Source of the DNA: a virus
Taxonomy: Duplodnaviria; Caudoviricetes
Strand: one strand, 5' to 3'
Virus record (IMG/VR): IMGVR_UViG_3300036818_000078
Location: 1-60,043 of that record
DNA length: 60,043 bases
Shown one piece after another: positions 24,393-60,043 of the stretch. Under the pieces are notes generated by a model. The model was given only the letters and a program-made list of their open reading frames with translations, was not told where the DNA came from and made no database searches. Made by a program: the position numbers and the translations under genes. Positions within the stretch are counted from its first letter, which is position 1; each line of letters starts with the position of its first letter.

Positions 24393-24403
24393 GAGAGGGA
24401 TGA

Positions 24404-24486
24404 CGGAGGATACAGGAGTCGAACCTGCATAGGTTTTATCCTAGACGGTTTAGCAAACCGCTTCAATACCGTTATGACAATCCTCC
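24404..24486 (-). tRNA. tRNA-Ser(GCT)
   Basis: GGAGGAT/ATCCTCC acceptor stem, GCGGT-TTGCTAA-ACCGT anticodon arm, long variable arm, GGTTCGACTCC T-arm; no encoded CCA. Confidence 0.85.
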
Positions 24487-24488
24487 AA

Positions 24489-24560
24489 GGCCCCTAACAG
24501 GACTTGAACCCGTAACATGCGCTTTACAGGAGCGCTGCTCTACCATTGAGCTATAGGGGC
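24489..24560 (-). tRNA. tRNA-Thr(TGT), with C at position 33
   Basis: GCCCCTA/TAGGGGC acceptor, AGCTCAATGGTAGAGC D-arm, GCGCT-CCTGTAA-AGCGC anticodon arm, GGTTCAAGTCC T-arm. Confidence 0.85.
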
Positions 24561-33081: not shown

Positions 33082-35178
33082 CTAATTTACCTGTCCTAAT
33101 TTACGTTGCATCTCTTCTAGACCAGCTTGTATTTTTCGCACTTCATTGCTTCCATACAGGGACTGCAGTCGAATACTGTACTCTTTGCGGGATATTTGAC
33201 CCGTGGGGAGATCACTCTCAGGGACAAACCACTGTACCGTTCCAAGTGGGGCCAATTTCTCAGGATCTGCCTGTTGCAATTTCAGATAGGTATCTCGAAA
33301 TTCCTGCATAAGAGAAATCGGTAACGGTTCGTTGTTTTGCGTAGACACTGTAGACGCCGTAGACGCTCCACCTGTTTTTATGCCTTCCGATGGCTCCACA
33401 GGCTCGTCTAGCTGTCCGTCTATGCCGTAGACGCTCCGTAGACGCTCCTGATTTCCGTAGACGTCTACAGCGTCTATAGTGTCTACGCTGTCTACAGCGT
33501 CTACAGCGTCTACGGAGTTTGCATTTTTCTCTTTCTTTGTTTTAGGGGAGGGAATCAGAGTTATATACCCACCTTTGATACCTGCTTCCTTATCTTCTTC
33601 CACCCACTTAATCTCATCATCATTCTTCATTTTATAAAGGAGTTTACGTATCTTCTCACTGTCATCAGTACCATCTACCAGCACTGCTATATCTTTAGGC
33701 ATCATTGGTGTTAGAGCAACGTCTAGGAAGTCAATGATGGCCCGACGCTCTTGACTGAGGGTATAATAGAGGGCTGTTTGTCCATCTCCTAATACCTTCC
33801 AGAAACCATTATTAAAGGCTATAGCTAGGTTTACCTCTTCTTTGTAGTCGCGTCCAGATGCGTAGACGGTGCCCTCAGCATCACCACGTCCGCGTTTTAT
33901 ACTGATAAAGCCGTCAGCACACGCTGTAACACCTGTTGTGGCGTTCAGTTCGTCAAACGGGTCGTCTGCGTTTGCTTTGCGTAGGTGGAATTGGATGAGG
34001 ATACAGATCCCGTACTTGTCTGCAAGCTCTTTGATACCTGCTAGGGCCTCGTACTCAGCATCATAGCCTGTTTCACCATTGCGACTCTTCACACGGGGTT
34101 TGACTTTAACCCACGGGTCGACAATGACAAGGCGCGTCCTTGGATGAGCGATAATCCACACCTCAAGTTTTGCTATGCCATTGCTGTCCAATCGGGGCCA
34201 CTTGGTTTCAATGTGTAGATCCTTTGGTGCGATGCTTCCAGGTCCCAGCAACTGACCGATACGATCTTGCAGACGGCGCTCTGTATCCTCTAGAGCTAGA
34301 TAGAGGGCCTCGCCTTGCTTTACCTGATATTTGCCTAGGGCTATTCCGCCAGAGGCCACCGCCATGGCTATGTTGAGATCTAGCCATGATTTACCAATCT
34401 TCTGTTTCCCACCAAGGACAATCAGTCCCATCGGCAGGAGTTCAGGCACTGCATATTCAATTGGCGGGAATTGCTTCTTCATCAAGTCGTATGCTGAGAT
34501 AGGGGCTGGCTCTCCTATCCTCTTGCGCTCATTTTCCTCTTTAGCTGATCGGAGCAAGTTGGTAAACTCGCGCATGGGGAATTCATGATGCCATATATCG
34601 AAGGCTGCTAGACGGATACGATCCTGCTCTATGGTATCCATCTCGGCTATCTCACCAGCTAGGGCATAGAGATCTTGCTTGTTGCCACATGTCAGAGCGT
34701 CCATAACCCGCTGATTCTCTATATTCCAGACGGGATCTGGCCTCACTGCCTGTACAGGTGCTGGTTGTTTCTTCTCTGTTCTTACCTCTTTAGGTGTGTA
34801 GGCATCGGGCTCAAATACTAGCCTGAAATCCTTCCATCCCTTCCCATGGCAACTATTATGGCTGCAGCTCGCACCTACACGCCCGTCAGCTTGTTCATAT
34901 AGACATGCGCTATTATCCGTATGAGATGAGTCCCAAATACATGCTTTAAGGTGATAACGCCTTCCACCATTATAGGGATCTACAGATTTATACTGTATCT
35001 GATATTTCTGTATGAAGCTTTCCATTGTGAACGTCTCACGTATCCATTGCGTCGGTTTGTGACCGTTGCTTGAGACATCTGCTTTTTTTGCATAGGCAGC
35101 CACAGCCTCTAGTAAGTGGCGCGGGACGGGTTGCCTCTTAAAATTCAAGTATTCGTGAGAATCTATGGGGGCGCTCAT
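33082..35178 (-). CDS. Replicative helicase, RepA/AAA_25 type, with N-terminal primase-accessory zinc domain
   Basis: Walker A 'GKQKIGKS', 'LYLALED', Walker B 'LVIVD', 'HLRK'; N-terminal 'CIW..SH...CSHNSC..KGW'. Confidence 0.85.
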   Translation of the reverse strand: MSAPIDSHEYLNFKRQPVPRHLLEAVAAYAKKADVSSNGHKPTQWIRETFTMESFIQKYQIQYKSVDPYNGGRRYHLKACIWDSSHTDNSACLYEQADGRVGASCSHNSCHGKGWKDFRLVFEPDAYTPKEVRTEKKQPAPVQAVRPDPVWNIENQRVMDALTCGNKQDLYALAGEIAEMDTIEQDRIRLAAFDIWHHEFPMREFTNLLRSAKEENERKRIGEPAPISAYDLMKKQFPPIEYAVPELLPMGLIVLGGKQKIGKSWLDLNIAMAVASGGIALGKYQVKQGEALYLALEDTERRLQDRIGQLLGPGSIAPKDLHIETKWPRLDSNGIAKLEVWIIAHPRTRLVIVDPWVKVKPRVKSRNGETGYDAEYEALAGIKELADKYGICILIQFHLRKANADDPFDELNATTGVTACADGFISIKRGRGDAEGTVYASGRDYKEEVNLAIAFNNGFWKVLGDGQTALYYTLSQERRAIIDFLDVALTPMMPKDIAVLVDGTDDSEKIRKLLYKMKNDDEIKWVEEDKEAGIKGGYITLIPSPKTKKEKNANSVDAVDAVDSVDTIDAVDVYGNQERLRSVYGIDGQLDEPVEPSEGIKTGGASTASTVSTQNNEPLPISLMQEFRDTYLKLQQADPEKLAPLGTVQWFVPESDLPTGQISRKEYSIRLQSLYGSNEVRKIQAGLEEMQRKLGQVN
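33341..33513. repeat. Iteron-like GTAGAC/GTCTAC repeats (candidate replication origin)
   Basis: Six GTAGAC (33341, 33350, 33359, 33427, 33438, 33457) then six GTCTAY at 9-nt period (33463-33513). Confidence 0.7.
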
Positions 35179-41274: not shown

Positions 41275-42135
41275 CTATTTCTTGTGTAATTTTTGCCATT
41301 CTGCATACGCTTTTTTATATGGCTGTAAAAAATGCTTTTGTGAAGTTGAAACATCTACCTCATAGATTGTCCTCTTGGCCTTAGGGTTTATCTCGCTAGG
41401 GACTATGTTTATCACTTTCCCCCCAGCAGTCTCTAAGAGCTTCATGCCGTCTGGTGTCCCTCCGTTGGCATAGATTTTTGCTATCTCTACTCCTTTTTCT
41501 CCCCACTTCTGTAGAGTTATGCCTACAAACCTCATTAAAAGCACCTTTGCATAGTTAGTTCGTCGGTCTGGTGGAACGCATGGATTAGACATAAAGTCAA
41601 TGATAATGCACTCTAACGGTCCCCCTGGCTCAAACCTTGTGATTGACTCCTCTCCAAATAGCCAACCTCGTTTACCTGCAATGAATTCAAGGGTTGCCCC
41701 ATGAGTAAGAGGGACAAAATTAATTGAAGCTGCGAGGCTTCCACAGTTTGATAGCTTTTTGTCATACAGGTGGTAGGTGCTTTCAGGACTAATCCTTGCT
41801 AACCGTCTGGTGTGCTCTATAGCTTGTGGGGTGACTGCCAGCTTTCCGAAGACAAGGTGTGCAAGTTGGTTTTCAGCATCCATATCGCTTATAGTTGCTT
41901 GTCTGTACTCAAAGTCCCTAGACTCTTCAAAGAAGAGAGCAGCTTGTATTTGTGCAAGCTTGCTATCAATCTCACTTTTGAGGTAAACACCTTTACCGTG
42001 CCCAGGCAGCATTATCCTGTTAACCCTACCTGTTTTTACCCAAGTGTGAAAAGTATTGTCATTTAGTCCTAAAACAGCTCTAGCTTGTGCTGCTGTATAG
42101 TACAGGTCTTTAACATGCGGTTGGTTTTGACTCAT
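41275..42135 (-). CDS. MerR-like/HTH_17 N-terminus fused to a GNAT-like domain
   Basis: 'YYTAAQARAVLGLNDNTFHTWVKTG' plus 'YRQATISDM...KIYANGGTPDGMKLLETAG'. Confidence 0.6.
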   Translation of the reverse strand: MSQNQPHVKDLYYTAAQARAVLGLNDNTFHTWVKTGRVNRIMLPGHGKGVYLKSEIDSKLAQIQAALFFEESRDFEYRQATISDMDAENQLAHLVFGKLAVTPQAIEHTRRLARISPESTYHLYDKKLSNCGSLAASINFVPLTHGATLEFIAGKRGWLFGEESITRFEPGGPLECIIIDFMSNPCVPPDRRTNYAKVLLMRFVGITLQKWGEKGVEIAKIYANGGTPDGMKLLETAGGKVINIVPSEINPKAKRTIYEVDVSTSQKHFLQPYKKAYAEWQKLHKK

Positions 42136-42196
42136 AAAACCACCTCCTTTCACTAAGTATATAGGACTTATTCCCGTTTGTAAATAGGTTAGACAG

Positions 42197-42281
42197 ATTA
42201 GACAGCAAATTTATTGACAACCCCGATTTCTTATGGTACTGTTAAAACAGTCTAACAAATTAGACAGCAAATTTATTGACA
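42197..42281 (+). promoter_or_regulatory. Promoter with 23-bp direct repeat
   Basis: ATTAGACAGCAAATTTATTGACA at 42197 and 42259; TTGACA(42214)-17 nt-TACTGT. Confidence 0.65.
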
Positions 42282-42311: not shown

Positions 42312-43193
42312 ATGCAGCAGTTGATTACAGCCACCACGCCCATAGAAAAAGACAAACCCTATGTCTACAAGCTATCTTATTCTGATGGGATAGTGTTCTA
42401 CATAGGAAAAGGCACGAATGAGAGAATACATGATCATGAATGGGAAGCAAGCTGGAAAAATGAAAGGTTGCACAACCTTCATAAATCACGTGTTATTCGC
42501 AAGATATGGGAAGAAGGTGGACAAGTCATAAAGCATATTCTAGCCTATTTTGAAACAGATCAAGAGGCATTGGAATATGAAGTGTCCTTGATCTTCTTCA
42601 TGAGAGGGCATGGACATCTAGCAAACAGTACGGATGGAGGGGAAGGAATTAGGGGCCTTGTCTTCTCAGAGAAACACCGTGAAAGGTTAAGTGGAGCAGC
42701 AAAAGGGCGCACACACTCTGAAGAAGCTAAGGGAAAGGTAAGCAAAGCAAATAAGGGGCGTATTCATTCTGAAGAAACCCGCAAAAAGCTAAGTGAGCAA
42801 CGCAAGGGACGTGTATTCTCAGAAGAAACCTGTAGAAAGATAAGTGAGTCAAACAAGGGACGAAATATACCAGAGGCTCAACGCGGAAGGATAAGTGAGT
42901 CAAACAAGACTCGTATTGTATCTGAGGATACCCGCAGAAAGATGAGTGAAGCACGTAAAGGGCGTAAAGGCCATGTTCCGTCTGAGGAGTCCCGTAGGAA
43001 GATGAGCGAAGCGCACAAAAACCCGCCTGAAGACCTTCGCAAGAAATGGAGTGAACAGCGTAAAGGTCGTGTCCAATCTGAAGAAACCCGTAGGAAGAAA
43101 AGTGAGACCTTAAAAGGTCGCATTATTTCTGAAGAAACCCGTAGGAAAATGAGCGAAGCGGCTAAAAATCGCACAAACGTGAAAAATAATTAG
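42312..43193 (+). CDS. GIY-YIG homing endonuclease with ~10 NUMOD3 repeats
   Basis: 'YVYKL...FYIGKG...R...H', 'NSTDGGEG', tandem 'HSEETRKKLSE' repeats. Confidence 0.9.
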   Translation: MQQLITATTPIEKDKPYVYKLSYSDGIVFYIGKGTNERIHDHEWEASWKNERLHNLHKSRVIRKIWEEGGQVIKHILAYFETDQEALEYEVSLIFFMRGHGHLANSTDGGEGIRGLVFSEKHRERLSGAAKGRTHSEEAKGKVSKANKGRIHSEETRKKLSEQRKGRVFSEETCRKISESNKGRNIPEAQRGRISESNKTRIVSEDTRRKMSEARKGRKGHVPSEESRRKMSEAHKNPPEDLRKKWSEQRKGRVQSEETRRKKSETLKGRIISEETRRKMSEAAKNRTNVKNN

Positions 43194-47330: not shown

Positions 47331-47984
47331 TCATCTTTTTTTCAACCATCGCTTAATACGTTTCACATCAGCAGTCTTAATGAATACACGGGTATCCCCA
47401 AAAAACTCATGTGTTTTAATGCCTAGCCTTTTTGCCCATCTACATAAAGTAGCCCTATTCACTTTTAATTCAATCGCTACTTGAGTTAGCCACTGATATG
47501 GAGCTGAACGTGGAATTGGTGGTCTTGGGACATATGGTATCACTTGGTTACTGGGTGAAGTTCTTAATTGTGGCTCATCTGGTTTTGCTGTACGGGATAG
47601 CAGATAGCTCCTCACGCGTTCAACTGTTTCCGGTCCAAGCACTCTAACCAGATCGTCATCAATGCGGTTTCTCTTTTTGACATTGCAATTCACACAAGCA
47701 GGCACACAATTATTAACATGTGTGCCCTCATGCATAACAGGTACAAAATGTTCTAATACTTCGTACGGTCTGAATAGGCAGTATGCGCACATGCCGTTAA
47801 AGTCTGCTACGGTTTGCTCCCATTCAGCAAGAGTTAGAGTCCCTTGCTTTCCCATGCGTCTAGCAATACCGACATGCGCTCTCACTCTCTGATAATCTGT
47901 GGTCTGCATGCTATAATATTCTCCTAAGTAGTCTAAGGGGTGCGTCATCAGTTTCCAGGCTAGGGCGCACCCCGGGCTATGCAA
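47331..47984 (-). CDS. HNH endonuclease with C-terminal HTH
   Basis: 'CAYC....LEHFVP...G.H..NCVPACVNCNVKK'; 'VAIELKVNRATLCRW'. Confidence 0.85.
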   Translation of the reverse strand: MHSPGCALAWKLMTHPLDYLGEYYSMQTTDYQRVRAHVGIARRMGKQGTLTLAEWEQTVADFNGMCAYCLFRPYEVLEHFVPVMHEGTHVNNCVPACVNCNVKKRNRIDDDLVRVLGPETVERVRSYLLSRTAKPDEPQLRTSPSNQVIPYVPRPPIPRSAPYQWLTQVAIELKVNRATLCRWAKRLGIKTHEFFGDTRVFIKTADVKRIKRWLKKR

Positions 47985-48831: not shown

Positions 48832-49833
48832 ATGGGGGATGCATTAAAACGTTGCAATGTATGTTGTAGAGAGTACCCTGCTACAACAGAGTACTTTCAC
48901 AGAACTAAGGCTATGAGAGATGGGTTTTTCAAGCAGTGCAAAGAATGCAGAGGCAAAGCAGCCAAGTCGTATCACGCAAACCTTGCGCAACGTGAGTCAA
49001 TCCCATTGACTGATGTGCCTTCTGAAAAACGGTGCAATAAGTGCCACAATAGTTTTCCTTTGACAACAGACTTTTTTAACCGCAATAAAACCAATAAAAA
49101 CGGTTTTGCTAATCAGTGTAGGAGTTGCACAGGTAAGGAGAGAAGAAGAAACGCTGTTGTGAGATATAGCAGAGAAGGGTACAAGCTATGTAAGGAATGC
49201 GAAAAAGAGTACCCCGCTACTACTGAATACTTTTACCGTGATAAAAAGGGAAGAGAAGGGTTGCACGGCTACTGCAAAGGGTGCCAAAGCGCAAAGAGAA
49301 CTTTTACTCTTCCTGATGATACTACAGGAATGCATAAATACTGCACGAAGTGTCAAAGAGAACTACCTGCTACTACGGAGTACTTTCATCGCAATAATAT
49401 TGGAAAAGGAGGTATCAACGGTGAATGTAAGGCATGTAAAAAAGCTCATCAACAAAAACCAGAGGTAAAGAGGCGAATTTCTTCTCAAAGGCGTGTTTAT
49501 CGAAACCTCCCTGGTGTGCGAGAGCGACTGCGTGTTTACAGTCACAACAGACGTGCCATCAAGAAAGCCATCCCAGGTACTTATACCTCTGCTCAAATCC
49601 AAGATCAACTGAAGAGGCAAAAGCACAAGTGCTACTACTGTCATAAGCGGTTTCAGAAGATCAAGGATAAACATATCTACCACATAGAGCACACGTTCCC
49701 ACTCAGCAGAGTAGCAGGGACCGACATTCCTGCTAACAGCATCGACTACCTCGTGTTAGCATGTCCGCATTGCAATCACAGCAAGAGTGATAAATTCCCA
49801 TGGGAATGGGCAGAAGGTGGCAGATTGTTATAA
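48832..49833 (+). CDS. HNH endonuclease with four N-terminal zinc-binding repeats
   Basis: 4x 'CxxC..EYPATTEYF.R....G....CKxC'; C-terminal 'CYYC...HIEH.FPLSR...N...ACPHCNHSK'. Confidence 0.9.
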   Translation: MGDALKRCNVCCREYPATTEYFHRTKAMRDGFFKQCKECRGKAAKSYHANLAQRESIPLTDVPSEKRCNKCHNSFPLTTDFFNRNKTNKNGFANQCRSCTGKERRRNAVVRYSREGYKLCKECEKEYPATTEYFYRDKKGREGLHGYCKGCQSAKRTFTLPDDTTGMHKYCTKCQRELPATTEYFHRNNIGKGGINGECKACKKAHQQKPEVKRRISSQRRVYRNLPGVRERLRVYSHNRRAIKKAIPGTYTSAQIQDQLKRQKHKCYYCHKRFQKIKDKHIYHIEHTFPLSRVAGTDIPANSIDYLVLACPHCNHSKSDKFPWEWAEGGRLL

Positions 49834-50414: not shown

Positions 50415-51329
50415 ATGGCATTCAAAAAAGCGGTAAAGTACGGTAGTTTTCTCAGAATGGCAATAGCAGGACCTGCAGGCAGTGGGAAGACTTGGACAGC
50501 TCTTACTCTTGCATCTGTGCTAGCTGGCGAGGGTGAAATTGCAGTTATCGATACTGAGCATGGAAGTGCTTCAAAATATGCAGATCAATTCTTGTTCGAC
50601 ACTCAAGAGTTGACCAATTTCAACCCAAACAACTACATGGCGGCTATCAAGGAAGCAGAGCAGGCAGGCTATGCGGTACTCATCATTGATAGCCTCTCGC
50701 ACGCCTGGACAGGTTCCGGTGGTCTTATGGAACAAAAGGATATCATTGCTAAGCAGAAGTATAGCAACAATGGTTTTTCAGCTTGGTTAGACGCTGGCAA
50801 GATTCAGAATAATCTCGTCAACACCATTCTGAGCAGCAAAATGCACATTATCGTTACTGTCCGCTCTAAGATGGAATACGTTGTCGAGCCTATTAATGGC
50901 AAGCAGACACCTCGTAAAGTCGGCCTAGCACCTGTACAGCGCGACGATCTCCCATATGAGTTCGATGTGTTCGCAACGATGGAAAATGACAATACCATGA
51001 TTGTTGACAAGTCTAGGTGTCCGCAACTATCGGGTCAAGTCATTGCAAAGCCAGGTGCTGAGGTTGCAACGGTGCTCAAAGCATGGCTTGACGGTGAACC
51101 TGCACCAGAGTTGCCTGCGCCAGCCCTAGCACAGGAACCCACTCCGATACCTGCTAGGACTGTCAACCCAGACGGCCCTGCTACAGAGCAGCAAATAGCC
51201 ACTATCGGCAAGCTTCAAAAACAGTTGGGTGAGGAGCCTGCAAACCTAGAAGGGCTTGGATTTGAAGACTGTGCCGCTCTGTTGAGAGAGTACAACCAAC
51301 GGCTGCAAGAGAAACGAAAGAGCGCATAG
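50415..51329 (+). CDS. AAA_24 ATPase, Sak4-like single-strand annealing protein
   Basis: 'GPAGSGKT', 'IDTE.GS', 'IIDSLSHAW', 'YEFDV', 'KSRC'. Confidence 0.85.
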   Translation: MAFKKAVKYGSFLRMAIAGPAGSGKTWTALTLASVLAGEGEIAVIDTEHGSASKYADQFLFDTQELTNFNPNNYMAAIKEAEQAGYAVLIIDSLSHAWTGSGGLMEQKDIIAKQKYSNNGFSAWLDAGKIQNNLVNTILSSKMHIIVTVRSKMEYVVEPINGKQTPRKVGLAPVQRDDLPYEFDVFATMENDNTMIVDKSRCPQLSGQVIAKPGAEVATVLKAWLDGEPAPELPAPALAQEPTPIPARTVNPDGPATEQQIATIGKLQKQLGEEPANLEGLGFEDCAALLREYNQRLQEKRKSA

Positions 51330-51814: not shown

Positions 51815-52108
51815 ATGTCAGTTGATCAACCGGAAGACGAGCAAGTAGAACGTCCCAAGTCCAATAGAGGCTTTGCATCCATGTCTAAGGAACAGAGAAG
51901 AATTATTGCATCAAAGGGAGGCAAGGCTGCTCATGCGCTTAAAAGAGCACACCAATGGACCCATGACGAGGCGGTGGCAGCAGGAAAGAAAGGTGGTGGC
52001 AGAACATCAGTGACGTATGCAAAACGGGCTGCATTAAGGCATGGTGGCTTTACAGATGAGGAGATACAAGAAAAGCTAGACAGTCTCAACAAGGCTATAG
52101 AGGAGTAA
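51815..52108 (+). CDS. KGG-repeat stress protein
   Basis: 'RGFASMSKEQRRIIASKGGKAAH...AHQWT.DEA..AGKKGG'. Confidence 0.85.
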   Translation: MSVDQPEDEQVERPKSNRGFASMSKEQRRIIASKGGKAAHALKRAHQWTHDEAVAAGKKGGGRTSVTYAKRAALRHGGFTDEEIQEKLDSLNKAIEE

Positions 52109-52484: not shown

Positions 52485-52742
52485 ATGAGCGAAGATATCA
52501 CACAAGATCCTGAGTATCGCAAAGGATACGAGAGAGGCATTGAAGCATACAGAAGAGAACAGTCTCTAGAGGTGAAAGGGTTTCATGCTGGCTACAACGC
52601 ACTCAAGACACCTAAGACTGTAGAGAGTAAAGCTGTCCCTGACAACTCAGAACGAGGCTGGCCGTCTCTCTCAACTCTTGAGGAGAGAATTGACGAACTT
52701 GAGAAGAGACTGAATAAGCTTGAGTGGTACACTGAGGAATAG
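52485..52742 (+). CDS. Hypothetical protein
   Basis: 'YRKGYERG', 'GFHAGY' repeats and C-terminal coiled coil. Confidence 0.55.
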   Translation: MSEDITQDPEYRKGYERGIEAYRREQSLEVKGFHAGYNALKTPKTVESKAVPDNSERGWPSLSTLEERIDELEKRLNKLEWYTEE

Positions 52743-52748
52743 AGCCGT

Positions 52749-53405
52749 ATGAATGATCCATGGCAGGCTATCAGAGAGCATAATGCTCAATTGCGTCAAT
52801 CCCAATCTAGCAGATTGCAGCAAGTCTCCGATGCGCAGGACCTCAAAAAGAAAGAATTTGAATATCAGCAGGCTATCAGAGAGCAAGCGCGGCGTGAATT
52901 GGAGCAGCGTCAAGCAGAAGCAAGGCGCATTGTAGCGCAACAAGCTACAGACCGCAAAGCTCATAATGAAGCATCTCGCAATGCCCTACTGACTCAATCT
53001 GCTCAAGATTTGAGGATTGCACACCAGAGGAGTCACGACGCACGCCTCGTAGCCAAACAGAACTTACAGGAAAGGCAACAGGTTGTGAGGAATGGCAGTC
53101 CAATTGAAACCGCATTCTTTGAGGCATGGTGTGTAGCATATCCAGATATCACGCTTATTCGTCAACATCAGGTTCTCAAGTATCGACTAGACTTTGCTCA
53201 TCTAGACACAAAAATAGCTATTGAGTTAGACGGTCATAGTTTTCATAGTAGCAGGAAAGACCGCAATAAGGACTACAAGCGACAAAGAGAGATAGAAACT
53301 TTTGGTTGGTCTTTTGTTCGGTTCACAGGCAGTGAGATATTTCAAGATGTGGGTAGCTGTGTAGAGATAGTGGCAAAGCGCATTAAAGAGCATATGGCGA
53401 GGTAG
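52749..53405 (+). CDS. DUF559/Vsr-like endonuclease with N-terminal coiled coil
   Basis: 'SPIE...QHQV.KYRLDFA.....IAIELDG..FH.....D..RQREIE..GW..VRFTGSEI'. Confidence 0.85.
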   Translation: MNDPWQAIREHNAQLRQSQSSRLQQVSDAQDLKKKEFEYQQAIREQARRELEQRQAEARRIVAQQATDRKAHNEASRNALLTQSAQDLRIAHQRSHDARLVAKQNLQERQQVVRNGSPIETAFFEAWCVAYPDITLIRQHQVLKYRLDFAHLDTKIAIELDGHSFHSSRKDRNKDYKRQREIETFGWSFVRFTGSEIFQDVGSCVEIVAKRIKEHMAR

Positions 53406-53903
53406 GCATGGTCAGGTGAGGTAGCGTCAGGTTCGGTCTGGTTAGGTTTGGAGCAGCATGGTCAAGCTAGGTTTGGCAAGGTAGGCGGGGCACGGTAGGC
53501 ATGGTGTGGATTGGTACGTTGTTGCGGGGTGATGCGTGGCTTGTCTAGGTTAGGTATTGCAAGGTTGGAGCGGTGTGCCAAGGTGAGGAAAGGTCAGGAC
53601 TGGTGAGGTTTGGTACGGCGTGTCTGGGTGAGGATTGGCATGGTTGGTGAGGTTGGGTTGGGCTAGGCAGTGCGCGGTGATGCTAGGCCCGGTAGCGCAT
53701 GGCCCGGTAGCGCATGGCAAGGTTCGGACTGGTTCGGTGCGATTCGGTTCGGCATGGTCCTGTAAGGCATGGTTGGCAAGGTATCGTATAGCGCGGTACG
53801 GTTCGGTATTGCAAGGTATGGCGCAGCATGGTAGGCAAGGGCAGGCACGGTAAGGTTGGGCGGGGCACGGACAGGTATGGCAAGGTACGGTATGGCAAGG
53901 TTT
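53396..53903 (+). repeat. GGY-NN pentamer array (candidate non-coding guide RNA array, VIPR-like)
   Basis: Manual parse: 96 pentamers plus 7 GGTW tetramers; 67 pentamers begin exactly GGY and the other 29 differ by one base; last two bases vary freely; ends in a T-rich tract. Confidence 0.85.
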
Positions 53904-53941
53904 TATTTGTTTTCGATTAGTTCAAGGAGAGGTCTAACAGC

Positions 53942-54493
53942 ATGATACGTTCATTTCAGGTTCAAATCACAGGGATTACACCAGTGATCATTAATCGCTT
54001 TCATGAAGAGGCTGCTGAAGAGGCAACTAGTAGTATGAGGTCAGCACGCAAAGAGCGACCAGCCCCACAAGAAGACGCGGCTAGCCGTCTCTATCAGAAT
54101 GGGAATGGCCCGTTCTTGCCTGCTGAGAACGTCAGACAAAGCATCATTGAAGCTGCAAAACGTTTCAAGCTTGGGAGACGGGCTGCTACAACCGACGTAG
54201 CTGCAGCGGTATTCATATCACCTTTTGAGCTTCCACTAGAAGGTGAGTGGCATGTGGACAGTAGAGCAGTCGTTATTCCTGCAACGGGTGGGCGTATCTT
54301 GCGACACAGGCCGATGTTCGATGAATGGAGTGTCAAATTTCAGCTCCAAATTGACACAGACACAGGCATTGATGAGAAGCTTATAAAAGAGGTATTAGGG
54401 AGTGCAGGAAAGCTAGTAGGAATAGGTGATTTTAGACCAGCTCGCAAGGGACCGTATGGCAGATTTAGTATAGACTCTTGGGAGCAAGAGTAG
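53942..54493 (+). CDS. Stand-alone RAMP/Cas7-like protein (Vipr-like)
   Basis: AAGGAGAGG RBS; RAMP-like 'ITGITPVII', 'PFLPAENVRQSIIEAA', and terminal Gly-rich loop 'GIGDFRP..KGPYGRF'; no other cas genes in the genome. Confidence 0.7.
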   Translation: MIRSFQVQITGITPVIINRFHEEAAEEATSSMRSARKERPAPQEDAASRLYQNGNGPFLPAENVRQSIIEAAKRFKLGRRAATTDVAAAVFISPFELPLEGEWHVDSRAVVIPATGGRILRHRPMFDEWSVKFQLQIDTDTGIDEKLIKEVLGSAGKLVGIGDFRPARKGPYGRFSIDSWEQE

Positions 54494-54783
54494 AGATGAA
54501 ACGCTTTGGGCTACCCACATACCCAATAGCTGATGGTATGCTCGTCAGGAAAAGACCACCTGACGAGCTACAGTGGCTTATAGACCACGGTTTCTTCGTG
54601 TCCTGGAGTTATCATCACCTCATTGTAAAGCTTCCTAATGGGATTTACAGGCTTTACCGCAACACGCAGCCAGTAGGACAAATTGAAGCGGAAGCAGCCA
54701 CGCTTGACGAACTGATACGGGACAACAGCGTGCCGATTGCGATGTACCAATGGCATGATGACAGAGGTGAGGATTTGGCATGA
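54478..54783 (+). CDS. Hypothetical protein (start probably ATG 54496)
   Basis: ORF directly downstream of the RAMP-like gene. Confidence 0.5.
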   Translation: MGARVEMKRFGLPTYPIADGMLVRKRPPDELQWLIDHGFFVSWSYHHLIVKLPNGIYRLYRNTQPVGQIEAEAATLDELIRDNSVPIAMYQWHDDRGEDLA

Positions 54784-54905
54784 GTGAGCCTGTAAAAGAC
54801 GCCTTCCTCATCCTCTTCATCATTATCCTCACTGCCGTGTTTATCTACCTTATCATGATGTCAGGTGCTCTAGAGCCATATGATGATGAAAGTGAGAATG
54901 AATGA

Positions 54906-55160
54906 ATGATAGGACGATTGAAGCGCGTAGTGAGAAGACACTATATCATCACCTATTTAGTAGCAGTTCTCATCATCATAGGTCAATTCTGCTGTCAAGC
55001 CTATCTCGTATTCACAAATAGCGATAAGACGCTCTACCTTGCTATTCCAACTCTTCTTACAGCTTGGATACTAGCAGCAGCAGAGCAAATAAGGACATTA
55101 GAGACGATAAGAAGAGAAGCGTACCTTGCTGCGATTAGGAGGATCAATAGGCTCAACTAG
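54906..55160 (+). CDS. Small two-TM membrane protein
   Basis: Two hydrophobic segments. Confidence 0.55.
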   Translation: MIGRLKRVVRRHYIITYLVAVLIIIGQFCCQAYLVFTNSDKTLYLAIPTLLTAWILAAAEQIRTLETIRREAYLAAIRRINRLN

Positions 55161-55323
55161 GGAAGCATCTCAAGTATATCCGTATGCATGAGATAGAAGG
55201 CAGAATTGGCAGATTGAATGCATGAGATGAGATTGAAAGTATGGGAATTTGACAAACTGCTGAGATGTGAGCTATACTGATGTCTGTAAATTTGCGTTTA
55301 ACGACACCAGAAAGGGAAAAGCT

Positions 55324-56241
55324 ATGTCTCAATCTCTCGACACTACGGATTTCTCAGCCTCTTTGCAAAACGCTACAGGTCAGTTATCAAAGAGATCTAA
55401 GCGCATTTATGAGAATGATGCTAAGGTCTTTGCAAAATGGCTTCTTGATTATAATCTAATACCTGATGTGTTTAGCCGTTCTCATGCCATTGCTTACAGA
55501 GCATACCTAGAAGAAACTTACCAGAAAGCAACGGCTAAACGGATGTTATCGGTAGCACGTCGTATCTTTGCAGAGCAGGTTATGAGTGGCAAGAGATCTG
55601 ATAATCCATTCCAGGATGTAAAAGGGTTCACCGTTGCAAACGAGACGACACATACAGCATTGACGAAAGAGCAAGCTAAAGAATTGCTAGATGCTATTGA
55701 CCAATCAACGCTTATTGGGAAACGTGATTATGCTTTAGTCTCTCTTTTGCTACGAACTGGGATCAGGCGTTCTGAATGTGCTGCTCTCGACATTGGGGAT
55801 TTGCAGAATGAGCAGGGCCATACTATAGCAGTCATCCGTCATGGCAAAGGAGACAAAAGGCGCATTATCAAAATCCCTGTTGATGTCTTTCGATCAATCC
55901 AAGTATATATCAAAAGCGTTGATAGAGTGCGTGATCCATTAGATGCTCCGCTCTTTGCTGGTTTTGATCGGTGGCTCCGCTCTACTGGTGAACGCATTAG
56001 CGATAAGCTGATAGAGCGAACGGTCAAATATTATGGCAGGCTCATAGGGGTACCGAAGCTTACACCGCATGGTCTGCGAGCAACATTCATCACGTTGGCT
56101 CTTGAGGCAGGTGCTACCCTCTTGCAAGTCCAATATGCAGCAGGCCATGATGACCCGCGTACTACAGAGCGCTATCAAACGCGAAAGCTGAATTTGGATG
56201 ATAATGCAGTAGACAAGCTAGCGTTCTTGAGCAGGGAGTGA
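55324..56241 (+). CDS. Tyrosine recombinase/integrase (XerC/D-like)
   Basis: R 'TGIRRSE', K 'HGKGDK', 'HGLR', 'AGH', Y 'TTERY'; TTGACA-18 nt-TATACT promoter at 55249-55278. Confidence 0.9.
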   Translation: MSQSLDTTDFSASLQNATGQLSKRSKRIYENDAKVFAKWLLDYNLIPDVFSRSHAIAYRAYLEETYQKATAKRMLSVARRIFAEQVMSGKRSDNPFQDVKGFTVANETTHTALTKEQAKELLDAIDQSTLIGKRDYALVSLLLRTGIRRSECAALDIGDLQNEQGHTIAVIRHGKGDKRRIIKIPVDVFRSIQVYIKSVDRVRDPLDAPLFAGFDRWLRSTGERISDKLIERTVKYYGRLIGVPKLTPHGLRATFITLALEAGATLLQVQYAAGHDDPRTTERYQTRKLNLDDNAVDKLAFLSRE

Positions 56242-59565: not shown

Positions 59566-60043
59566 ATGGGATTTATGTCACAAATGTGGAACGCTGGCCG
59601 CGCGTGGGTAGCCGCTCGCCGTGCCTATGACGAGCCAGGACTTGGTGGTCAATATCGTTCGTACTACAGGAGGATGTCAGAATATGACTTGCTTTGGAGT
59701 TACTACAACAGCTCAGCTTTTGACAAGGCTGCCAGATTCCTCAATAGTCAGGCCAGCGGAACCTATGGGCCTTTCCTCTGGGACCGATATAAGGCAAATT
59801 ATAATCTGTACAGAAACATTCGTCTCATATACAACCCTACAACGCGACTCGTCAACTTCTATGCTGGACAGATCTATCCAGGTATACTCTCTGAAGACGG
59901 CTCAAAACTACCCGATGGAGTTCCCTTGGCTATCCCCTTTAGTGACGACACATCTCCTGCTCTCAAGACGGCTATAGCGCAATTGTGGACATGGAGCAAC
60001 TGGCAACAGAAGAAAGCAGTTGAAGTTCGCTACGGAGCAGCAC
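59566..60043 (+). CDS. Portal protein, N-terminal part (continues at position 1)
   Basis: ATG 1 nt after the terL stop; MGFMSQMWNAGRAW...; 117 codons to 59916, in frame with ORF 10-1317. Confidence 0.8.
   Translation, partial: MGFMSQMWNAGRAWVAARRAYDEPGLGGQYRSYYRRMSEYDLLWSYYNSSAFDKAARFLNSQASGTYGPFLWDRYKANYNLYRNIRLIYNPTTRLVNFYAGQIYPGILSEDGSKLPDGVPLAIPFSDDTSPALKTAIAQLWTWSNWQQKKAVEVRYGAA

Follow-up and report, generated by a model that had tools for sequence, protein, structure and literature searches.

A probable VIPR locus with a staggered GGY-NN guide array on the genome of a temperate soil phage

What is a block of five-base repeats doing beside a single small RAMP gene on a phage that carries no CRISPR system? 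The question is raised by the IMG/VR virus record IMGVR_UViG_3300036818_000078 (Duplodnaviria; Caudoviricetes), of which positions 1 to 60,043 were analysed; this whole stretch of 60,043 nucleotides (nt) is called the window. The locus is read here as a VIPR (Viral Interference Programmable Repeat) system on the complete genome of a temperate soil phage, with a probability of about 0.9. Systems of this kind are already described in preprints of 2026, as is the staggered form of their arrays. Every defining VIPR feature on which sequence gives a clear answer is found in the window. These include tandem GGY-NN (YNNGG) units adjoining the vipr gene on the same strand, at least four of which are expected and 103 are present, and a predicted means of delimiting the guide RNAs (vrRNAs), here seven −1 phase shifts; no tail or hammerhead was found. 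The core of the locus comprises three features.

53396 to 53903, plus strand (the strand of vipr): predicted vrRNA array of 103 GGY-NN units, from the parse and the array caller.
53904 to 53941, plus strand: T-rich spacer with ribosome-binding site AAGGAGAGG; the T-rich tract itself lies at 53899 to 53915.
53942 to 54493, plus strand: vipr, encoding a minimal RAMP of 183 amino acids (aa), with an RRM core, a thumb hairpin at about residues 103 to 126 and a G-loop at residues 160 to 174.

The published systems provide the frame for this reading. The VIPR preprint (PMC13142463 = bioRxiv 10.64898/2026.04.26.720920) describes Vipr as a RAMP of about 20 kDa and vrRNAs as 9–16 YNNGG repeats, distinguishes seven VIPR types with accessory genes vap1–6, and reports that VIPR transcriptionally silences rival phages, prophages and satellites. 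A companion cryo-EM study of the SUSP1 protein (10.64898/2026.04.26.720927) reports that each repeat takes up one protomer, that two neighbouring protomers together enclose its GGY and that NN stays exposed. According to the VIPR preprints, double-stranded DNA (dsDNA) is bound with every third target base skipped, on either strand in the case of SUSP1 Vipr. A genomic-language-model preprint recovers VIPR arrays by their 5-nt period. The original prediction, made from the letters of the window, had likened the locus to the phage VIPR architecture. VIPR is indeed in print (PMC13142463), and the window protein is homologous to the solved SUSP1 Vipr. Its proposal that each subunit grips one GGY and displays NN agrees with the SUSP1 structure in what is held and what is displayed; the assignment of one GGY to one subunit does not stand, since two adjacent protomers hold each GGY.

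The 183-aa protein is a homologue of SUSP1 Vipr with a minimal Cas7-like RAMP fold. Its sole sequence match among PDB chains in a phmmer search is 36pp_D, annotated ‘SUSP1 Vipr protein’ (E 2.3e-9), and a profile built from 37 relatives finds the same chain at E 6.4e-13. BLASTP aligns residues 2–178 with a protein of phage HK3 at 30% identity (E 3e-17); the HK3 protein is the same as the SUSP1 chain in text and numbering over residues 57–188. Of the 130 phage records returned by a tblastn search, 93 cover 80% or more of the query; the records are mostly Felixounavirus-type coliphages with about 27% identity over 97% of the query. In PHROGs the protein belongs to phrog_4652, a family of unknown function (E 1.4e-22), and no model for it was found in Pfam, NCBIfam or PADLOC. 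An AF2 model computed from the 37-sequence alignment is confident (pLDDT 86, pTM 0.80) and consists of one RRM core, a long beta hairpin at about residues 103–126 and a glycine-rich loop before the last strand, without a second RRM. The original prediction had suspected a Cas7-like RAMP from a proline motif in the first strand, a proline-bearing helix and a terminal glycine-rich loop, and these hallmarks correspond to invariant columns of the family (P14, P60 and G160/G162/D163/R165/P166...G170/P171/G173). The structural comparison that it had proposed likewise bore out the fold. Foldseek against the PDB places Csm3 and type VII Cas7 at the top (E about 1e-6, probability 1.00, TM score about 0.5), and a VIA-align comparison with 48,161 representatives reaches Z 11.1 for Csm3 6ae2_B, with a root-mean-square deviation of 2.5 over 138 residues. 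The 19 best VIA-align rows are all CRISPR RAMP backbone proteins; the solved Vipr structure is absent from both fold libraries.

The residues that handle the scaffold in SUSP1 are largely retained. According to the cryo-EM preprint (10.64898/2026.04.26.720927), D177, W178, R179, R138 and E71 hold GGY, H17 contacts G1, and K33 contacts the backbone beside the skipped base. D177 and R179 correspond to invariant D163 and R165 in the window protein, W178 to the aromatic F164, thumb residue R138 to invariant R123, and helix-1 residue E71 to E62. Among the 37 relatives D163, F164, R165, R123 and E62 are invariant or nearly so. K33 corresponds to R33, a column that holds R or H in most rows of the family alignment. 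The fold resemblance raises another possibility, that the complex targets RNA instead of DNA in the manner of Csm3 and Cmr4 backbones, as the top structural matches are the RNA-targeting backbones of types III and VII. The nearest functionally known relative, SUSP1 Vipr, is reported by the VIPR preprints to bind dsDNA on either strand, and RNA targeting is regarded as very improbable.

With class 1 Cas7 backbones (Csm3, Cmr4, type VII Cas7 and Csf2) the window protein shares the RRM core, thumb hairpin and glycine-rich loop, together with predicted polymerization on a guide RNA at a fixed period. The period differs: Cas7 follows a 6-nt step with one flipped base, whereas the window system would follow a 5-nt step with three buried bases and non-contiguous guide information. 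Unlike class 1 CRISPR loci, the window has no repeats and spacers, no cas1 or cas2 and no other cas genes. Across the 60,043-bp record the models for Cas1 (PF01867) and Cas2 (PF09827) have no match, with positive controls detected, and a CRISPR-like repeat family is absent from the whole record, as originally claimed. A class 1 CRISPR-Cas locus was rejected as an identification on these grounds; the RAMP backbone fold is shared.

The array itself is strongly periodic. Base autocorrelation over 53396–53903 is 0.48–0.50 at lags of 5, 10 and 15 and about 0.17–0.30 off-period. A dynamic-programming parse divides its 508 nt into 103 units, of which 96 are pentamers and seven are tetramers. The length and the pentamer count match those first proposed; the tetramers are an addition. 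The caller score is 175, set against 7.5–10 for five shuffles of the window, and the same caller finds no second array elsewhere in the window on either strand. Entropy by unit position, from 1 to 5, is 0.86, 0.37, 1.40, 1.88 and 1.90 bits, and all but one of the 16 dinucleotides are seen at NN. The near-maximal entropy and the range of dinucleotides imply that NN varies almost freely, in agreement with the freely varying dinucleotide of the original prediction. Its ‘near-constant GGY’ describes a periodic scaffold that is real and a constancy that was overstated: GGY is exact in 74 of the 103 units, and 83 begin with GG. Its description of the block as non-coding was nearly right, except that an upstream open reading frame (ORF) at 52749–53405 runs 10 nt into the array before it stops. 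The array ends 38 nt upstream of the vipr ATG, and the T-rich tract followed by a 183-aa gene is as predicted, the tract lying at 53899–53915 ahead of the ribosome-binding site. Pieces of the array with no differences occur in two soil-metagenome runs that belong to separate studies, and the source sample may be one of the two; among metagenome DNA contigs there were short identical pieces only, and no array variants.

A simpler origin for such a block would be a G-rich pentanucleotide microsatellite lying beside a RAMP gene by chance, or a region coding for a repeat protein. Slippage can create short-period G-rich repeats, and ORFs of 56–72 aa overlap the array. Slippage would copy NN too, however, yet NN is near maximal entropy, and both adjacency and strand are conserved across relatives at 25–88% protein identity. 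A coding region fares no better: the 10-nt overlap with the upstream gene aside, none of the ORFs that overlap the array exceeds 72 aa on either strand, and the seven 1-nt phase shifts break any frame. This explanation is already contradicted by the NN entropy and the conserved adjacency, and is the least credible of those considered.

The association between array and gene was followed through related loci. A word-indexed search yielded 193 relatives at E ≤0.001, with identities from 100% to 47% among the 120 listed. A clade profile run against 1.84 billion cluster representatives matched 6,830 at E ≤0.001 and 2,533 at E ≤1e-10. The comparison covered 177 loci (L numbers below), 17 of them taken from genomes, 80 out of IMG/VR and 80 from metagenomic data, with some duplicate records among them. 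Arrays were called at a caller score of at least 20, twice the best shuffle, and adjacency was defined as a same-strand array no more than 300 nt from vipr. Arrays on the strand of the gene are present in 116 of the 177 loci and a minus-strand array in none. The original prediction had asked whether GGYNN arrays flank homologues, and they do so in 111 of the 177 loci, upstream only in 33, downstream only in 46 and on both sides in 32. Nine of the 66 loci without an adjacent array have an incomplete flank. Non-canonical repeat motifs, which are reported for VIPR (bioRxiv 10.64898/2026.04.26.720920; genomic-language-model preprint), would escape the GGYNN caller used here. Some relatives carry far longer arrays: the downstream array reaches about 320 units (1.6 kb) in L114/L115 (4559–6143) and about 240 units in L020 (4548–5739). 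In L114, a gene for a DEAD/Helicase_C_2 helicase also lies about 600 nt ahead of vipr, separated from it by one small ORF.

The phase shifts appear to punctuate the array into guides. Tetrameric units occur as GGTA at 53401, 53480, 53494 and 53830 and as GGTT at 53563, 53642 and 53771. Each shifts the register by one base, and the array otherwise keeps a single register. They come after units ending in GCAA, GCAT or GCAC, with the exception of 53401, which follows GGCGA. A 4-nt GGTW followed by GG is equivalent to two pentamer series that overlap by one base; by the register parse, the fifth base of the closing GGTA of vrRNA 1 is the first G of the next guide. Guide boundaries are inferred at the seven tetramers. 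After a 2-unit leader, the segments between phase shifts measure 16, 3, 14, 16, 26, 12 and 14 units, which gives the following predicted products.

53405 to 53484, plus strand: predicted vrRNA 1, 15 pentamers and a closing GGTA (register parse; 4-nt unit at 53480).
53484 to 53498, plus strand: remnant of three units between the tetramers at 53480 and 53494.
53498 to 53567, plus strand: predicted vrRNA 3, 13 pentamers and a closing GGTT.
53567 to 53646, plus strand: predicted vrRNA 4, 15 pentamers and a closing GGTT.
53646 to 53775, plus strand: predicted vrRNA 5, 25 pentamers and a closing GGTT.
53775 to 53834, plus strand: predicted vrRNA 6, 11 pentamers and a closing GGTA.
53834 to 53903, plus strand: predicted vrRNA 7, 14 pentamers, ending GGCAA GGTTT.

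The three-unit remnant is probably no working guide. Predicted vrRNA 5 contains a 15-nt tandem duplication at 53685–53714 and may represent two guides whose boundary has been lost. The array end in the close relatives L099 and L101 resembles the end of predicted vrRNA 7. When the window and 17 non-redundant close relatives are taken together, 71 four-nt units are found (29 GGTT, 22 GGTA, 10 GGCA, five GGCT and five others). The unit before them is most often xGCAT (19) or xGCAA (15), and the distances from one interruption to the next fall mainly at 11–20 units. In L019, L020 and L114, 4-nt inserts without GG, such as CTAA, stand in place of the GG tetramers.

This arrangement fits the staggered vrRNA form already described. 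The legend of Fig. S18 in bioRxiv 10.64898/2026.04.26.720920 refers to staggered arrays in which vrRNAs arise from 1-nt overlapping positions. The likeness is that adjacent guides overlap by 1 nt, so that each guide's end signals where its neighbour begins. The consensus boundary found here, xGCA(A/T/C) followed by GGT(A/T), and the CTAA-like inserts of L019, L020 and L114 may be additional to the published description. Such a rule (4-nt GGTW after xGCAW) could allow automatic guide calling in staggered arrays.

A separate observation concerns how guides change. L099 (2539–2618) and L101 (440–519) share their vipr-proximal guide, the first 13 units of which are identical at NN and differ at Y only, in three units; the other guides of both arrays differ. 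The pattern is suggestive of selection acting on NN, with distal guides being replaced. Pairs of related arrays differ at 41 positions in all (27 at NN, nine at Y and five at GG), from so few pairs that the count is too small to carry weight.

The closest described relatives are type II VIPR systems (Escherichia phage SUSP1 and a Pseudomonas fulva prophage; PDB 36pp). Both they and the window have a single small phage-borne RAMP without cas genes, same-strand GGY-NN repeats with hypervariable NN, and the conserved D-aromatic-R of the G-loop, the thumb arginine and the helix-1 glutamate. They differ in several respects. Protein identity is 27–30%. In the SUSP1-like phage HK3, would-be vrRNA stretches lie on both sides of vipr and of the gene downstream of it, whereas the window has a single 508-nt upstream array and no counterpart of that downstream gene. 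SUSP1 vrRNAs each end in a pseudoknotted tail, and Rfam detects no tail in the window.

Taken with the protein homology, the array supports a gapped-guide interpretation in which a RAMP would assemble on GGY-NN RNA. The proposed course of events is as follows. (i) By homology with SUSP1, the array would be transcribed, probably by read-through from the upstream gene whose stop lies inside it. (ii) The transcript would yield about six full guides of 12–16 units (one of 26), staggered and overlapping by one base. (iii) Vipr protomers would polymerize along each guide, one per pentamer. (iv) GGY would be buried through the G-loop residues D163-F164-R165, thumb R123 and helix-1 E62, leaving the NN pairs exposed. 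(v) The filament would bind dsDNA, reading NN-x-NN-x with a 1-nt skip. (vi) The bound filament would repress transcription of a competing phage, satellite or prophage.

Several findings weigh against the VIPR assignment or its mechanism. A single scaffold mismatch occurs in 29 of the 103 units (none has more), and GGY is broken there; in SUSP1, perturbing GGY abolished silencing (bioRxiv 10.64898/2026.04.26.720920). Segments of 3 and 26 units fall outside the published range of 9–16. SUSP1 H17 aligns to a gap, beside invariant N18. In the preprint literature the 1-nt skip and DNA targeting are shown only for type II, about 27–30% identical to the window protein. An Rfam scan of 52500–55500 gave no matches, and thus no structured 3′ tail and no ribozyme or hammerhead. 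No RNA runs are listed as containing a stretch of the array. Neither a sigma-70-like promoter nor an intrinsic-terminator hairpin flanks the array, which makes read-through from upstream genes the simplest assumption.

The search for targets adds to this side of the balance. Punctuation-defined guides were scanned under the 1-nt-skip rule against both strands of the window and the 177 loci (2.3 Mb), where the best scores equalled those of shuffled guides; the VIPR preprint (bioRxiv 10.64898/2026.04.26.720920) likewise reports no self-targets for its systems. Seven exact 9-unit seeds searched in IMG/VR matched 2, 3, 4, 0, 3, 0 and 2 loci, that is 14 loci in eight sequence families, and yielded no natural target above chance. 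Informative positions outside the seed match in 30 of 132 cases (23%), the random expectation, and all the seed matches were rejected as chance for that reason. Two candidates had looked better than the rest. Over its units 1–10, guide 7 agrees at 20 of 20 positions with four small contigs that are related to one another, in frame within a 102-aa ORF of no known family and with the skipped base at the wobble position; the candidate was rejected, as the last four units match at 0 of 8 positions and no other guide converges on those contigs. A guide 6 match in L198/L199 was also rejected, at 20 of 24 positions overall and 2 of 6 outside the seed. No guide is shared with relatives: no 8-unit run rises above the null among the 7,432 units of their arrays.

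The lack of a natural target in the window, the 177 loci or the seven-seed IMG/VR scans would also suit a different role, in which the array serves as a decoy or sponge, diverting the Vipr of a competitor. Satellite-borne solo vrRNAs are used in this way according to 10.64898/2026.10.15.759431. The array is not solo, however; an intact vipr follows it on its own strand after 38 nt, an arrangement found in 111 of the 177 relatives. A decoy is accordingly judged about as remote as RNA targeting, and a working VIPR locus remains the preferred reading.

A second question is whether the gene that runs into the array belongs to the system.

52749 to 53405, plus strand: 218-aa protein with a C-terminal nuclease domain of the DUF559 / REase_MTES_1575 (Vsr-like) type.

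The protein has a Q/R/E-rich N-terminal region and matches PF18741 (E 1.2e-13) and PF04480 (E 5.3e-12) in Pfam. Its stop codon falls inside the first array units, and homologues are similarly placed, their stop codons coinciding with the array start or lying within it, in L018, L019, L098, L099, L100, L101, L107 and L108. These eight loci amount to about six non-redundant ones, L099, L100 and L108 being near-identical. Eight other genes near the locus in the window were compared in the same way and have no homologue in the eight loci; only two of them match anywhere among the 177, the 95-aa ORF described below in L110 and the integrase, weakly, in L083. A short DUF559-like ORF also lies between two GGYNN arrays, upstream of vipr, in L071 (1783–2109) and L072 (3542–3868). 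It was found with a hidden Markov model of six full DUF559 sequences (E 5e-8), and Vipr there is 36% identical to the query. The gene type is thus present in 10 of the 177 loci.

On this evidence the DUF559 gene is a candidate VIPR accessory (vap-like) gene, and an alternative output for the locus can be considered: a VIPR chassis from which the nuclease would be recruited to, or act at, the Vipr-vrRNA R-loop, so that the target is cut or nicked and not only silenced. In the window and eight loci the gene runs up against the array start, none of the other neighbours compared is conserved there, and the DUF559-like ORF recurs between arrays in L071/L072 despite a Vipr of only 36% identity. Putative catalytic residues D148, E159, D161 and H166 are invariant in six sequences. 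The 218-aa protein weakly matches the anti-phage proteins Hhe and ProA, which end in DUF559 domains, and two of the types described in the VIPR preprint, III and V, carry nucleases. Yet the gene is absent from close relatives with downstream arrays (L020, L102, L106, L109, L110, L112 and L114) and is therefore dispensable for Vipr. It could also be a selfish element, as at least three further endonuclease genes of the homing type are present in this phage and the second PADLOC match of the protein is ‘homing endonuclease’. Functional coupling of the nuclease to VIPR is consequently a tentative proposal, with the odds against it.

Types III and V are the natural comparison. They too have a predicted nuclease gene linked to vipr and an array. 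According to bioRxiv 10.64898/2026.04.26.720920 these types sit mainly in host defence islands and not in phages, a further point against coupling here, and HNH is the nuclease domain named in its Fig. S21 legend; the window has a DUF559/Vsr-like domain on a complete temperate phage genome. The term ‘DUF559’ has no occurrence in the main text of that preprint. The recurrent DUF559 nuclease cassette on a phage, together with the explicit boundary consensus, may be new. A bolder version would hold that a phage VIPR clade carries the DUF559 gene, a tail-less punctuated array and vipr as one co-inherited, probably co-transcribed cassette, with the nuclease as the effector that cuts rival DNA. This is somewhat less likely again than coupling as such, and transcriptional silencing by the VIPR filament is retained as the expected output.

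The gene on the other side of vipr offers less.

54496 to 54783, plus strand: 95-aa ORF, starting 3 nt past the vipr stop.

It has no match in Pfam, PHROG, PADLOC or NCBIfam, shows no resemblance to the gene that follows vipr in phage HK3 or in DSL-LC04, and occurs in one of the 177 related loci (L110), where it is not adjacent to vipr. There are 14 metagenome homologues, and the AF2 model is a confident alpha/beta structure (pLDDT 85) with no PDB fold match at E ≤0.001. The ORF was rejected as a vap gene because it has no family, is not conserved beside vipr and is unlike the HK3 and DSL-LC04 genes; its membership of the system is doubtful.

The setting of the locus is a whole phage. The record is a complete genome of about 59.9 kb, with a 127-bp terminal direct repeat at 1–127 and 59917–60043 and a CheckV completeness of 100, and the window is taken on this basis to be the entire phage genome. 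Its genes include those for both terminase subunits (small and large), the major head protein, the tape measure protein and an endolysin, as well as a DNA methyltransferase and several homing-type endonucleases. The phage is temperate, siphovirus-like and from soil. The viral location expected of VIPR is thus present in full: a complete phage genome with terminal repeats, structural genes and an integrase. The locus lies between the recombination module and the integrase, within a run of plus-strand genes. Other features of the genome are these.

24402 to 24560, minus strand: adjacent tRNA-Ser(GCT) and tRNA-Thr(TGT) genes.
42312 to 43193 (plus), 47331 to 47984 (minus) and 48832 to 49833 (plus): homing/HNH/endonuclease VII-type genes.
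50415 to 51329: recombination module, AAA_24/Sak4-like.
51815 to 52108, plus strand: 97-aa protein of the phage early region that carries a KGG stress-induced repeat motif (PF10685, E 4.7e-7).
55267 to 56241: tyrosine integrase gene.

Repeats of other kinds occur elsewhere. The endonuclease-type gene at 42312–43193 contains six coding repeats of 51–55 nt at 42742–43156. In the divergent intergenic region between this gene and the one at 41275–42153 (minus strand), two 27-nt direct repeats that are 96% identical and both end in TTGACA lie at 42193–42219 and 42255–42281; they may be paired operators or promoters. A 698-aa ORF at 33082–35178 on the minus strand contains, at 33463–33525, a 9-nt repeat (GTCTACAGC-like) in five tandem copies.

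The wider interest of the locus follows from the family to which it is assigned. With its non-contiguous code, VIPR constitutes a new class of RNA-guided DNA recognition, and it has been proposed as an ancestor of CRISPR RAMP effectors. The family is large, with thousands of cluster representatives (the 6,830 matches given above), and to it the window adds a complete environmental temperate phage genome with a compact VIPR of about six guides. The DUF559 link, if functional, would qualify the published view that nucleases are found only in host-resident VIPR types; were the nuclease cassette real, target destruction would reside in the viruses themselves, beyond the VIPRs that hosts have captured.

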